A DNA stretch of 12,292 bases from a virus (taxonomy: Duplodnaviria > Heunggongvirae > Uroviricota > Caudoviricetes). The stretch lies in IMG/VR virus record IMGVR_UViG_2547132278_000008, positions 1 through 12,292 of that record. One strand, written 5' to 3'. The notes under the pieces were generated by a model. The model ran no database searches. It was not told the DNA's origin and saw only the letters and a list, made by a program, of their open reading frames with translations. A program made the position numbers and the translations under genes. Positions 2,933 through 4,748 of the stretch are shown one piece after another (within the stretch, counting starts at the first letter, position 1; the number at the start of each line of letters is the position of its first letter).

Positions 2933-3514
2933 TAGATAAGTACAAACTATTCATAAAGTGAATTGTAAGTGCTAAGATCTGATAGTTTCCAGTCGTAGAC
3001 TGGAGACTCGACCTGATGGGTGGGGGTAAGCGTCACTGGCGTCAGGTTTAAAAAAGCTCACTACCAGCGTAGAACTGGTGCCGTTTAGGTGTCGGGGAAG
3101 GGGGAACCAAAGTGAGCAGAGACAAGGGTCACTTTATGATTGTCGAGTCTGGGGTGTTTCGAGAGGTTGAATCCAGTACTCCCCTTCATAAAGTGTGGGA
3201 AGATCTCGGTTCTGGGGTGCTGTCATCCATAACTTCCCAAGTCTAAGCTGGCAGTAGACTTAGACCATAACTTTTCAGGTTATGAAACGACCAGGTTGGT
3301 GAGAGATTTTTATACTCACCTCCCTGGGAGAGTATTACCTGAAAAGACAACCTCTCACTTCGTTCGAGGTGAACTTCACTCACTTCGTTCGTTCAGTTCA
3401 GGTTTATAAAAACCTGTTCTGGGAAGTAATTTGTTTATTTTAATAATTATTAACACGCACGCGTGTGCGCACGCGCGAGGAAAAATCGGCGCGGCGCTTG
3501 ATTCAGGAGTTTAT
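2933..3514. other. ORF-free, repeat-rich and hairpin-rich intergenic region; candidate structured ncRNA, origin or regulatory hub
   Basis: No ORF of 60 aa or more on either strand. Hairpins include CCAGTC gta GACTGG (2989-3003), GGTGAG...CTCACC (3298-3320) and AGGTTT ataa AAACCT (3401-3416). Direct repeats include TCTGGGGTG at 3138-3146 and 3211-3219, and CACTTCGTTCG at 3356-3366 and 3381-3391. Confidence 0.3.
3453..3477. repeat. 25-nt perfectly alternating purine-pyrimidine tract (Z-DNA-prone) with central CACGCGTG palindrome
   Basis: ACACGCACGCGTGTGCGCACGCGCG read directly; lies about 40 bp upstream of the RNase HI start codon. Confidence 0.9.
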
Positions 3515-4105
3515 ATGACGACGAAGACACCAGCCCGATCGCAAGCAAAAACTCGCAAAAAAGACAAAAACAAAAATTCTCCCCGCACCAATCCCACAAC
3601 GCCTGTCGTAGAGTTCAATCCCCAGCTTAAAACCGTGAAAATCTTTAGTGATGGCTCTTGCCTTAAAAATCCGGGTGGCCCGGGCGGTTACGGTATCGTT
3701 CTCCAGTATCGTGGTGAGGAACGCGAGTTCTCAGATGGTTTTCATAGCACCACCAATAACCGCATGGAGATGATGGGGGCACTTATCGGGCTGGAGCGTT
3801 TGAAATATCCATGCAACGTTATTTTGCACTCTGATAGCCAGTATCTGAAAAACGGCATGACACAGTGGATGAAATGGTGGAAACGCAATGGATGGATGAC
3901 TTCTGACAAAAAACCGGTAAAGAATGTTGATCTGTGGAAGCGTCTGGATGAGGCCGCAAGTCGACATAATGTTCGCTGGAAGTGGGTTAAAGGTCACGCC
4001 GGGCATCGTGAAAATGAAATATGTGATCGACTCGCGAAGATCGCAGCTTTTTCAGCAGCAGATATGCCTCACAAGAAAGATATTGGTTTTGTTTATAACA
4101 AATAG
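3515..4105 (+). CDS. Ribonuclease HI paralog (196 aa) with a ~45-aa basic N-terminal extension
   Basis: AGGAG at 3505-3509 precedes ATG 3515. The core aligns by eye to E. coli RNase HI with all catalytic residues present: IFSDGSC (D), NNRMEMMGA (E), HSDSQY (D), [18 protein letters not shown] (H, D). The extension is Lys/Arg/Pro/Thr-rich. Confidence 0.85.
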
Positions 4106-4202
4106 TAAGTAAGTGTTTACCTATCATTTTAAATCATGTATCTTATCGGCGTCAGGATGACAATGTGTCGGTAAGACACAGTTCCAGGATGGAACGAGAA
4201 AG

Positions 4203-4224
4203 GCGGCTGGCAATCGCCAGCCGC
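4203..4224 (+). terminator. GC-rich hairpin (possible terminator or 5'UTR structure)
   Basis: GCGGCTGGC aatc GCCAGCCGC forms a 9-bp stem; the downstream tail CTCTTTCT is only weakly U-rich. Confidence 0.35.
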
Positions 4225-4253
4225 AACTCTTTCTGACACTGGATGGAGTCCAC

Positions 4254-4748
4254 ATGGCACGTCAAACCTATTTCACTTCTGTAACTAAACGTCCTCGTTC
4301 TTTACGTCAAATTTTGGCCGAATTATTTAGCGGTCGTGTTATGTCACGTCTTGATGAACTAGAGACTACCGTTCGGTTGCTGAATGAACGTTTAGATAAT
4401 CAAGCGTCAGTTGTTGCGAACGTGGGGGCGATTGTTGCCTCTGGTTCTTCACGCGAAGCGAAAAGTACACGGCCTTTAGTGAAGGAGAAAAACAACAAGG
4501 ACAGTTCGAATGGAAAATTTTCAAAGAAAGAGGCTGAAACCAATGGCCTACGTTCTCATTATAGTTTCACTGGCGACGGTAGCCGTTCCAGCCGGCCAGA
4601 GCCTTTTGATGCCGGGTTCATCCATCACCACACCTCCGTCGACGACAATTACCACCACTCCAGTAGAGCGTCCTGTCACTCTGGATGGGATGACGGTGGA
4701 TGCGATACCTCAAGTTCATCCGGTTACTCAGGATCATGCTGTGACTAA
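4254..4748 (+). CDS. Hypothetical protein; N-terminal ~85 aa look coding, C-terminal part is doubtful (overlapped by a +1 frame ORF)
   Basis: GGAG at 4245-4248 precedes ATG 4254. The N-terminus is coiled-coil-like, but after about residue 90 the translation becomes Ser/His/Cys/Gly-rich low complexity. Confidence 0.35.
   Translation: MARQTYFTSVTKRPRSLRQILAELFSGRVMSRLDELETTVRLLNERLDNQASVVANVGAIVASGSSREAKSTRPLVKEKNNKDSSNGKFSKKEAETNGLRSHYSFTGDGSRSSRPEPFDAGFIHHHTSVDDNYHHSSRASCHSGWDDGGCDTSSSSGYSGSCCD

Follow-up and report, generated by a model that had tools for sequence, protein, structure and literature searches.

A structured RNA with its own promoter lies upstream of the RNase HI gene

The window, meaning the whole 12,292-nt stretch of DNA that we analyzed, belongs to an SSU5-type phage-plasmid, and the features described here lie on its plus strand unless stated otherwise. 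It carries a gene for a 196-aa RNase HI (rnhA, 3515–4105) that matches Pfam RNase_H over residues 40–178 (E = 1e-44) and PHROG phrog_531 RNase H (E = 1e-80), and, as an earlier note on this DNA had stated, an alternating purine–pyrimidine tract (3453–3477) sits upstream of this gene. The start codon (ATG, 3515–3517) and a Shine–Dalgarno sequence (AGGAG, 3505–3509) are aligned in all lineages that carry rnhA at this position (hereafter, rnhA-type lineages). A longer RNase HI N-terminus spanning the tract, a possibility that the earlier note had raised, was rejected because the length of an A-run next to the tract differs among near-identical copies (5 to 10 nt) and so disrupts the reading frame. 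The tract is thus untranslated, and the 254-aa annotation of the SSU5 RNase H is too long.

The sequence preceding rnhA had been described as an AT-rich promoter region, a description that we revise: most of the ~580-bp gap is taken up by the gene of a structured RNA. This gene has its own sigma-70-type promoter (2950–2978), which consists of a −35 element (TTCATA, 2950–2955), a 17-nt spacer, and an extended −10 element (TG, 2970–2971; TAAGAT, 2973–2978), from which transcription would start at ~2982–2986. A stricter consensus scan misses the promoter, which matches at 8 of 12 positions. The layout TT(T/C)A..-N17-TG.TA..AT nevertheless recurs in every lineage, down to the JZ38 clade at 69% identity, and the sequence around it is only ~0.5 identical across lineages. 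Near the start of the transcript lies a 5′ hairpin (2988–3004; TCCAGTC-gta-GACTGGA), and at least seven distinct sequences from different lineages each fold into a hairpin at this position.

The body of this previously unannotated non-coding RNA (3008–3429, ~420 nt) was recognized from conservation, covariation, and expression; counted from the predicted start, the RNA spans 2985–3429 (~445–450 nt). Among the E. coli, Salmonella, and Klebsiella lineages, the body averages 0.93 identity, compared with ~0.6 for the adjacent rnhA coding sequence. RNAalifold found 103 pairs, 35 of them with compensatory changes. When a named structure (100 pairs, 17 helices) was evaluated, 99.1% of cells were paired (34–49% when the structure was slid) and 33 pairs showed double changes (2–5 when slid), a result matched by none of 500 shuffles. 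Many G-U pairs set the RNA strand as plus. No Rfam 15 family matches the body, and an ORF at 3112–3246 is frameshifted or missing in other lineages. No conserved minus-strand promoter was found within the RNA; the lone minus-strand match (2991–2962) lies upstream of it, in non-conserved sequence, and points away. With a covarying structure, a promoter of its own, expression, and no conserved ORF, the locus classifies as a structured non-coding RNA.

This RNA resembles GOLLD and ROOL RNAs in being several hundred nucleotides long, rich in covarying helices, and encoded by phages or prophages. It differs from them in having no Rfam 15 match and in having been found so far only in SSU5-type phage-plasmids of Enterobacteriaceae. 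About 690 sequenced plasmids carry it, as do 4% of complete E. coli genomes, and in both conservation and expression level it ranks among the top features of SSU5-type phage-plasmids. The stretch had been annotated as empty or misannotated, either as a 44-aa ORF or as extra N-terminal sequence of RNase H, and the present results correct gene starts and ORFs given in reference records. Neither the RNA nor the tract has a published description in the literature that we searched. The tract, which on its own would be a modest regulatory detail, is what led to this RNA.

The alternating tract among relatives and in cargo-replaced copies

The tract, ACACGCACGCGTGTGCGCACGCGCG, is a compound (CA/CG/TG)n dinucleotide repeat that ends in CGCGCG, and its purine–pyrimidine alternation is perfect over exactly 25 nt, bordered by A3452 and A3478. 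No other alternating run in the window exceeds 12 nt, and none of 1000 dinucleotide-preserving shuffles reached 25 nt (longest run, mean 13.8, maximum ≤24); the run, which the earlier note had called rare, is thus non-random. Its GC content is 76%, compared with 21% in the 53 nt upstream and 46% in the whole window. In PhiR41_1, a complete 108-kb relative, the tract is the sole alternating run of at least 16 nt, and its kernel, CGCGCGAG, is single-copy. The best Rfam 15 match over the tract, HCV_SL2531-SL2549, scored 21.5 bits, below the gathering score of 56, and was set aside as a chance match produced by two GC hairpins.

Related elements retain the tract, as a check suggested in the earlier note had asked. 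Its length ranges from 6 to 29 nt in the family; the 3′ end is always CGCGCG-AG, after which comes the hypervariable A-run (3481–3485 in the window). Identity is 0.87 over the tract and 0.91 over its 3′ half, compared with 0.51 in the AT-rich spacer upstream (3430–3452; 24–37 nt in relatives, with indels) and 0.61–0.74 in the leader and the start of rnhA, making the tract an island of conservation. Sixteen unique E. coli-type copies share the identical 25-nt sequence, and in them the neighboring A-run drifts from 5 to 9 nt; the exact tract of the window occurs with A-runs of 5, 6, 7, 8, and 9 nt. All tract variants are composed of CA, CG, TG, and TA dinucleotides, and lengths change by even steps, as between (ACACGC)3 and (ACACGC)4 in lineages L051 and L036. 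About 13 of 15 substitutions among variants are transitions that preserve alternation, an excess with p ~ 0.08 against a 2:1 expectation by our own count of events that are not independent. A recombinant, L128, joins an SSU5-type spacer to a tract and a GC segment that are both of the E. coli type, indicating that the tract and the GC segment of the leader move together. A pattern scan of genome contigs for a third, more divergent clade returned mostly chance matches plus Buttiauxella and Kluyvera, and neither a metagenome scan nor a distant-mode search of phages turned up any clade other than the same two.

The combination, in a gene leader, of a dinucleotide repeat with a homopolymer, both differing in length among lineages, recalls simple-sequence contingency loci. 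Here, in contrast, the repeat is invariant in length among the 16 E. coli-type copies, and the element that varies as a phase-variable repeat would, the A-run, lies outside both the coding sequence and a promoter spacer. The palindrome inside the tract, CACGCGTG (3458–3465), is only 8 bp long; in SSU5 it reaches 12 bp, and L036, L051, L091, and S. Tennessee lack it. An operator or cruciform function for it, the latter proposed in the earlier note, is not supported because it is not conserved among lineages.

In some elements, rnhA and the GC segment of the leader have been swapped for cargo genes, with the RNA body still intact. Homology between rnhA-type and cargo-type copies breaks 3–5 nt past the A-run. 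The median tract length is 16 nt in cargo-type copies and 25 nt in rnhA-type copies (nominal Mann–Whitney p = 7e-5), and the median local folding energy is −11.0 versus −22.3 kcal/mol (nominal Mann–Whitney p = 6e-7), a contrast that reflects few independent events because one left junction is common to all cargo types. This decay of the tract where rnhA has been replaced suggests that the tract is functionally tied to rnhA. The downstream gene of the distant clade possesses a good promoter of its own, recognized by eye, 3′ of the kernel (e.g., TTGACT-N17-TAAATT in JZ38), so that the kernel sits where the RNA unit ends, outside a promoter.

These patterns bear on whether the tract has a function at all. 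It could be a largely neutral (YR)n microsatellite that grew by slippage from a CGCGCG kernel, its length and alternation without function and its persistence owed to slow mutation and to constrained sequence next to it. The restriction of variants to four dinucleotides, the even-step length changes, the intactness of the RNA body whatever the length of the tract, and a leader without covariation (see below) are all consistent with this reading. We nevertheless consider it unlikely, given that tract identity stands well above that of flanks at ~0.5–0.7, that fixation of the tract beside a drifting A-run is unlike the behavior of an unconstrained slippery repeat, and that shortening correlates with loss of rnhA.

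Transcript levels and predicted hairpins between the RNA and rnhA

For E. coli LF82 carrying Cyrano (OV696614.1), 98% identical to the window in this region, the published normalized RNA-seq value of the RNA is 117, compared with 9.5 for the ORF upstream and 8.4 for rnhA (PMC9928086; GEO GSE154648). Across five conditions the ratio of the RNA to rnhA ranges from 6- to 42-fold (PMC9928086 Table 1, S1 Table); the RNA stands 12-fold over prophage background, and rnhA is at background in all five conditions (PMC9928086). In one published dataset the RNA is strongest inside macrophages. The difference between the upstream ORF and the RNA supports autonomous transcription of the latter. The drop from the RNA to rnhA points to a barrier between ~3246 and 3515; the values are per-gene counts, which do not place the 3′ end of the RNA, and the drop could reflect merely a greater stability of the structured RNA.

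Within ~3246–3515, the tract hairpin is the lone strong structure. Both RNA and DNA minimum free energy folds predict a small hairpin in the 5′ part of the tract (3453–3466; ACACG-cacg-CGTGT), which is confined to the E. coli lineage. In a second, more stable predicted hairpin (3467–3497), the 3′ part of the tract (3467–3478) pairs with the GC segment at 3486–3497 around an apical loop, GGAAAAA (3479–3485), that contains the A-run, giving a GC-rich stem-loop with a ΔG of −16.5 kcal/mol on its own. Equivalent predicted hairpins range from −14 to −25 kcal/mol in most rnhA-type lineages, with −10.7 in L036, and from −0.7 to −8.8 kcal/mol in cargo-type copies; those that enclose the A-run span −16 to −25 kcal/mol in the main rnhA-type lineages and −11 to −14 kcal/mol in a single lineage. 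Fold z-scores reach significance in the window (−2.44) and in Klebsiella (−2.28) and fall short of it in SSU5 (−0.14) and L036 (−0.09). Among 27 distinct rnhA-type leaders, RNAalifold found only six consensus pairs and no compensatory changes, and lineages pair in differing registers; the self-complementarity of the stem limits the power of this comparison. The hairpin is followed by a short U-containing tail (TTGATTC, 3498–3504; four U within the first 8 nt) whose decaying tail score, −3.35, is in the top 5% of window positions. Tails across lineages have three to four U in 8 nt and scores of −2.6 to −3.7 (top 5–20% of window positions). A terminator scan requiring at least five T in 8 nt and a loop of 3–8 nt calls nothing at the tract. 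By eye, GGA in the loop and in the Shine–Dalgarno sequence might be read as CsrA sites; the distant-clade kernel has no GGA.

As the best explanation available, yet one that we put forward tentatively and regard as possible rather than probable, we propose that the tract is the GC arm of a hairpin that separates the RNA from rnhA as a leaky attenuator or insulator. The strong constitutive promoter at ~2950–2978 would make the ~450-nt structured RNA, and polymerase running past the RNA body would first traverse a flexible AU-rich linker and next enter the alternating GC tract. Pairing of the tract's 3′ half with the GC segment past the A-run would form the very stable hairpin at 3467–3497, whose loop would be the A-run; the short U-containing tail and the Shine–Dalgarno sequence of rnhA come next. 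This hairpin might cause the drop in transcript level by acting as a leaky terminator or attenuator, and possibly also as a barrier to 3′-exonucleases that blocks decay. The abundant lysogenic RNA could thereby be kept apart from RNase HI, a replication-type gene near background in lysogens. Placing the A-run in the loop explains why its length drifts freely (5–10 nt) beside an invariant tract. The long alternation would be a by-product of slippage and transitions that enlarged a short ancestral CGCGCG-AG kernel.

The position of the tract, between rnhA and an RNA that is supported by covariation and autonomously transcribed, speaks for an attenuator. Against it, GC-rich sequence of any kind folds well, the leader shows no covariation, and the U-tail is poor; a strong terminator in particular would mean that lytic expression of rnhA from upstream needs read-through or an unrecognized promoter. 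An attenuating hairpin would offer a concrete account of how the RNA is transcriptionally separated from an adjacent replication gene, and it suggests that the barrier erodes when RNase HI is replaced by cargo that profits from lysogenic expression.

Known regulatory hairpins resemble this arrangement in part. As in intrinsic terminators and attenuators, a GC hairpin with a U-containing tail comes right after an abundant RNA, preceded by an AU-rich linker of the sort seen in many bacterial sRNA genes, and transcript abundance falls strongly across it. Unlike canonical terminators, the tail has only three to four U in 8 nt, the loop is A-rich and 7–12 nt long, the scan does not call the site, and the stem is a self-complementary dinucleotide repeat whose register varies by lineage. 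REP elements act as intercistronic stabilizer hairpins, giving differential expression of the malE–malF type. The tract shares with them a GC-rich palindromic character, a position between co-directional units, and an upstream RNA more than tenfold as abundant as the downstream one. It differs in having no REP consensus, in being single-copy in a 108-kb genome, and in following a structured non-coding RNA instead of an mRNA.

Readings based on a promoter, DNA structure, recombination, or replication

The tract might instead belong to an rnhA promoter and 5′ UTR, in which a −10-like element ends the AT spacer, the tract supplies a GC discriminator and initially transcribed region, a 5′-terminal GC hairpin stabilizes the rnhA mRNA or gates it, and the promoter stays off in lysogens. 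TAnnnT-like hexamers in AT-rich sequence abut the tract in every lineage, the gap between the tract and the ATG is too small for a promoter, the tract decays with loss of rnhA, and the hairpin ends 7–10 nt before the Shine–Dalgarno sequence. We find this reading rather doubtful, however, because −35 and extended −10 elements are absent, and a scan of 3400–3515 on both strands, the AT spacer included, for −35 and −10 hexamers spaced by 16–18 bp calls no promoter-like site. The spacer, moreover, is free in both length and sequence, the background level of rnhA holds in all five RNA-seq conditions, and the distant-clade promoter lies after the kernel.

The earlier note had proposed that the tract is prone to adopt Z-DNA. 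In such a scheme, negative supercoiling would flip the tract into the left-handed form, which would block RNA polymerase or absorb torsion and make rnhA expression dependent on supercoiling. A perfect alternation of 25 bp with eight CpG steps belongs among the sequence types most prone to the B-to-Z transition, and (CG)n and (CA)n inserts form Z-DNA in supercoiled plasmids. The uniqueness of the tract in a 108-kb genome and the alternation-preserving character of most substitutions also favor the idea. The tract differs from such inserts in being natural, of mixed CG/CA/TG composition, and of a length that is not conserved (6–29 bp). Taking uninterrupted alternation of roughly 12 bp or more in a CG-rich repeat as the length needed, the window (25 bp) qualifies, but alternation is only 6–8 bp in the distant clade and 10–16 bp in most cargo-replaced copies, too short for a transition at physiological superhelicity. 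Transitions and dinucleotide slippage would, in addition, maintain alternation without selection. In the twin-domain model, positive supercoils arise ahead of the polymerase; the tract, downstream of a strong co-directional promoter, would thus lie in a positively supercoiled domain, probably disfavoring Z-DNA in lysogens. Z-DNA is physically plausible here, yet it is not a conserved property of the locus, and as the selected role of the tract we consider it distinctly unlikely. The comparative sequence data do not point toward any of the DNA-level ideas in the earlier note (Z-DNA, cruciform, or hotspot).

A broader and more speculative conception, which we judge improbable, treats the RNA, AU linker, tract, and A-run as one device. 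Its 3′ module would sense DNA topology or form an R-loop at the tract, and would either prime DNA synthesis after cleavage by the phage RNase HI encoded alongside or switch on RNase HI and lytic-replication genes in response to a change in supercoiling at induction.

A recombination hotspot at the left edge of a cargo-exchange slot, also suggested in the earlier note, is very improbable. The break in homology just past the A-run, internal deletions of the tract in cargo-type copies, and the L128 breakpoint between spacer and tract are what such a hotspot might leave. The left junction, TCGCCCATCGTAATG..., is nevertheless common to all cargo types and hence represents essentially one inherited event, the right junction lies inside the 3′ end of rnhA without an alternating or related motif, and the locus has no associated recombinase. 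An integron attC reading was dropped as well, as nothing pertinent appeared in the paper checked.

Least probable of all is an origin of the ColE1 RNA II type, in which a transcript of ~500 nt would hybridize persistently at the GC tract, RNase HI from the neighboring gene would cut in the A-run, and the resulting 3′-OH would prime replication. The layout is similar, with a promoter ~500 nt upstream, a structured transcript, a GC segment, the A-run motif GGAAAAA, and a link to RNase H; the motif may resemble the RNA–DNA switch of ColE1 (...GGAAAAACGCC), and an AT-rich stretch adjoins the tract. RNA-based prophage origins do exist in mycobacteriophages (PMC7157519). Against an origin, cumulative GC skew in a complete relative, a measure dominated by uniform gene orientation, has no feature here and turns only near repA at ~104 kb. 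The elements, moreover, are not independent of Rep, carrying repA and an IncFIB-type replicon elsewhere; no conserved antisense promoter of the RNA I type was found; the element persists with a truncated tract after loss of rnhA; and the tract RNA is not G-rich, whereas G-richness favors R-loops. The window contains 14 one-mismatch matches to DnaA boxes (11.5 expected), unclustered and none exact.

Pairing between the tract and the RNA body was also considered. Three long-range pairs given by RNAalifold were rejected as spurious products of misalignment of the distant clade. A possible 4-bp closing helix (CUCG/CGAG) is invariant.

The alternating tract and its surroundings

Sequence matches place the window in an SSU5-type phage-plasmid, with megablast identities of 98–99.5% to Escherichia phages CMS-2020a, PhiR41_1 and Cyrano and of 80–84% to Salmonella phage SSU5 and several Klebsiella phage-plasmids. 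Among 5,426 complete E. coli genomes, 231 carry the region, nearly always on plasmids of ~110 kb, and PLSDB contains 686 plasmids with it (Klebsiella, Escherichia, Enterobacter, Salmonella, Citrobacter and Cronobacter). The neighboring genes form a DNA-metabolism module encoding an epsilon-like exonuclease, Dam methylase, RNase HI, and TerB and DUF4942 proteins.

The 25-nt alternating tract described in the earlier note was confirmed. At 3453–3477 (+), between A3452 and A3478, ACACGCACGCGTGTGCGCACGCGCG alternates perfectly between purines and pyrimidines over exactly 25 nt and contains the palindrome CACGCGTG (3458–3465). The next longest alternating run in the window is 12 nt, and the longest run in 1000 dinucleotide-preserving shuffles averaged 13.8 nt and never exceeded 24 nt. 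G+C content is 76% in the tract versus 21% in the adjoining stretch. A complete 108-kb relative has no other alternating run of at least 16 nt, and the 3' motif of the tract, CGCGCGAG, occurs there once.

All enteric lineages share one layout 3' of the RNA described below: an AT-rich spacer (variable, 24–37 nt, identity 0.51), the tract, AG(G), a homopolymeric A-run of 5–10 nt (3481–3485 in the window) and TCG. Composed entirely of CA, CG, TG and TA dinucleotides, the tract changes length in even steps, with some lineages carrying plain (ACACGC)n tandem repeats; lengths of 6, 8, 10, 14, 15, 16, 18, 20, 21, 22, 23, 25, 26, 27 and 29 nt were seen. Its constant part is the 3' end, ...CGCGCG-AG, which is all that a distant clade has of it. 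Among enteric lineages the tract is a conservation island (identity 0.87 overall, 0.91 in the 3' half) between more variable flanks. Sixteen unique E. coli-type copies carry the exact 25-nt tract next to A-runs of 5, 6, 7, 8 or 9 nt; variation of the A-run may reflect true slippage or, to some extent, homopolymer sequencing errors in the assemblies. By hand count, ~13 of 15 tract substitutions, which are non-independent events, were transitions (p ≈ 0.08 for an expected ratio of 2:1); transitions keep the alternation, but an ordinary mutation spectrum would do so too.

A structured RNA gene upstream of rnhA

What the earlier note took for a promoter region of the RNase HI gene, rnhA, is instead an RNA gene with its own promoter, covariation and expression, and we regard this RNA as a more interesting outcome than the tract itself. 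Its sigma-70-type promoter (+ strand; -35 TTCATA at 2950–2955, 17-nt spacer, TG at 2970–2971, -10 TAAGAT at 2973–2978) lies at the same position in every lineage, including a ~69%-identical clade comprising Cronobacter sp. JZ38 and its relatives (JZ38 clade). Together, promoter and RNA (~450 nt) occupy 2950–3429 (+). In the first multi-lineage alignment ~3008–3429 was nearly invariant, versus ~60–80% identity in flanking coding DNA, and identity is 0.93 in the RNA body (3008–3429) versus 0.61 at the beginning of rnhA. The 5' hairpin following the promoter keeps its structure with sequences that differ in at least seven ways.

RNAalifold predicted 103 pairs from 21 representatives, 35 of them with compensatory double changes. 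With the structure fixed at 100 pairs in 17 helices, 99.1% of cells were paired, versus 34–49% with slid partners, and double changes occurred at 33 pairs versus 2–5; none of 500 shuffles reached the observed values. Because most double changes stem from one deep split (enteric versus JZ38 clade), the independent covariation events are fewer than the pairs. Numerous G-U pairs assign the RNA to the + strand. No Rfam 15 family matched the RNA, even at E ≤ 10 on the isolated locus, a literature search found no description of it, and only the enteric and JZ38 clades were recovered; it seems to represent a family of large structured RNA not described before.

A 44-codon ORF within the RNA (3112–3246, +) is disrupted by frameshifts in five lineages and has neither start nor stop codon in the JZ38 clade. 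It corresponds to CYRAN_81 of phage Cyrano, annotated as a 44-aa "hypothetical protein", and is spurious. In a re-analysis of E. coli LF82 RNA-seq data, CYRAN_81 was listed as a "moron" expressed 12-fold over prophage background; its normalized value was 117, whereas the upstream ORF had 9.5 and RNase H 8.4, and over LB, medium and macrophage conditions, log2 values were 6.8–10.35 for CYRAN_81 versus 2.6–5.0, and its expression peaked in macrophages at 6 h (PMC9928086). The RNA is thus real, abundant and autonomously transcribed, and the published values give a 6- to 42-fold fall in transcript abundance from the RNA to rnhA.

Directly upstream of the RNA, always and in both clades, lies a small conserved ORF (2678–2932, +; PHROG phrog_5343, unknown function), whose product could be a partner protein of the RNA. 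Between this ORF and the dam gene is a 17-nt inverted repeat (2538–2554 / 2580–2596, 94% complementary, arms 25 nt apart) that is kept in relatives, where it likewise matches itself in inverted orientation.

The rnhA leader and replacement of rnhA by cargo

The RNase HI reading frame (Pfam RNase_H, E = 1e-44) opens with ATG 3515, and an AGGAG lies ahead of it at 3505–3509; eight aligned relatives all share this ATG and the ACGAC that follows. An in-frame TTG at 3431 would lengthen the ORF in the window (3431–4105) and make the tract part of an N-terminal extension, but the A-run between tract and ATG is anywhere from 5 to 10 nt long across otherwise near-identical copies, which breaks the longer frame. 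The tract is therefore untranslated, as the earlier note had supposed. In the SSU5 record (NC_018843, 4363–5127), RNase H is annotated as a 254-aa protein that starts inside the RNA's 3' portion and crosses the tract; its conserved start is the ATG equivalent to 3515, giving 196–197 aa. Residues encoded at 3515–3631 form a Lys/Arg/Pro-rich N-terminal extension of ~39 aa before the RNase_H domain (Pfam match from residue 40), which diverges strongly between lineages.

Some relatives carry betT, a DUF262 protein gene or hypothetical genes in place of rnhA, in a slot equivalent to ~3486–4040 (seen at L009–L012, L085, L073, L112 and L158, all related loci). Homology of these cargo-type copies to the window ends 3–5 nt past the A-run and resumes within the last ~25 codons of rnhA, which leaves part of the gene in place. 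One left-junction sequence is common to all of them, indicating essentially one ancestral replacement followed by cargo turnover.

The tract is linked to rnhA, as had been proposed. Median tract length is 25 nt (range 15–29) in 53 unique copies that keep rnhA (rnhA-type) and 16 nt (10–26) in 12 unique cargo-type copies, a set that contains one misfiled rnhA copy whose effect opposes the trend. Median folding energy over 62 nt from the tract start is -22.3 and -11.0 kcal/mol, respectively (nominal Mann–Whitney p values, uncorrected for phylogeny: length 7e-5, energy 6e-7). Every cargo-replaced copy has an intact RNA body, so the RNA does not require a full-length tract, which instead accompanies rnhA and its leader. 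A recombinant related locus (L128, 7379–7442) points the same way, combining an SSU5-type AT spacer with an E. coli-type tract, GC segment (3486–3497 in the window) and rnhA leader, which puts the breakpoint between spacer and tract.

A candidate leader hairpin and alternative explanations

In rnhA-type transcripts the tract's 3' half is predicted to pair with the GC segment past the A-run; in the window, 3467–3478 would pair with 3486–3497 around a GGAAAAA loop (-16.5 kcal/mol), with a small predicted hairpin (3453–3466) ahead of it. Equivalent hairpins are predicted in every rnhA-type lineage, mostly at -14 to -25 kcal/mol (-10.7 at the related locus L036), and they always hold the A-run in the loop, which accounts for its free drift, and end 1–10 nt before the Shine-Dalgarno sequence. 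Cargo-type leaders form hairpins of merely -0.7 to -8.8 kcal/mol with ordinary tails. Fold z-scores were significant for the window and Klebsiella, not for SSU5 or L036, and alignment of 27 distinct rnhA-type leaders gave only six consensus pairs with zero compensatory changes; since CGCGCG is self-complementary and allows several pairing registers, covariation may be undetectable here. Support for the modeled hairpin comes from thermodynamics and correlation, not from covariation.

We tentatively propose that the tract supplies the 5' side of this hairpin, which would act between the RNA gene and rnhA either by leaky termination or attenuation or by blocking decay. The hairpin would separate a strong constitutive RNA gene from a replication-type gene held at background in lysogens, and it is the sole strong structure predicted in the interval where transcripts fall. 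Where cargo that would profit from lysogenic read-through has replaced rnhA, the barrier would erode, and the alternation would be a by-product of dinucleotide slippage growth from a CGCGCG kernel rather than a selected property. The RNA, its promoter architecture, the fall in expression, the ability to fold, the conservation island and the association with rnhA are observed; that the hairpin causes the fall, and by which mechanism, is inferred. The 3' tails (UUGAUUC, AUUCU, UUUGG, UUUCU) hold just 3–4 U in 8 nt. By the decaying U-tail score used in terminator finders, rnhA-type tails rank among the top 5–20% of window positions, and a terminator scan did not call the hairpin site. With the U-tract short of the canonical terminator class and covariation negative, the tract may work like an intrinsic terminator or attenuator of low strength, or like a REP-like intercistronic stabilizer, but is not claimed as a canonical member; we rate it as a candidate leader or attenuator hairpin whose stem is unusual in being built from a repeat.

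A neutral microsatellite would fit both the slippage pattern and the lack of covariation, but it is unlikely, as it leaves unexplained the conservation island and a tract that is stable beside a drifting A-run. That the tract belongs to rnhA's own promoter or 5' UTR is also unlikely. There is no space for a promoter 3' of it, but neither a -35 nor an extended -10 was found, the spacer shows no constraint, and every sampled condition has rnhA silent.

The earlier note's interpretation stands as regards a conserved, untranslated tract linked to rnhA, but not as regards promoter context, a cruciform or Z-DNA as a selected property. A Z-DNA element is physically plausible (25 bp with eight CpG steps), and the window's tract has a Z-prone sequence; across the family, however, alternation length is not kept, falling to 6 nt, and positive supercoiling ahead of the strong co-directional promoter would, under the twin-domain model, disfavor Z-DNA, making this element quite improbable. 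The suggested recombination hotspot is very doubtful, with a single inherited junction near the tract and no motif at the right junction. Least probable is a ColE1-like RNA-primed origin, whose geometry is attractive and which has an RNase H gene beside it and a sequence that may resemble the ColE1 switch, but GC skew is featureless at the locus, a RepA/IncFIB replicon lies elsewhere in the element, neither an antisense unit nor DnaA boxes were found, and the locus persists without rnhA.

3' of rnhA, a GC-rich terminator-like hairpin of 9 bp at 4203–4224, GCGGCTGGC-aatc-GCCAGCCGC, was called on both strands. Two hairpins with CAGGAUG loops (4150–4195 and 4236–4250, +) give a weak CsrB-like Rfam match (16.8 bits) and are accompanied by an additional GGA at the ribosome-binding site of the ORF at 4254–4748, an arrangement that looks like a CsrA-regulated leader.
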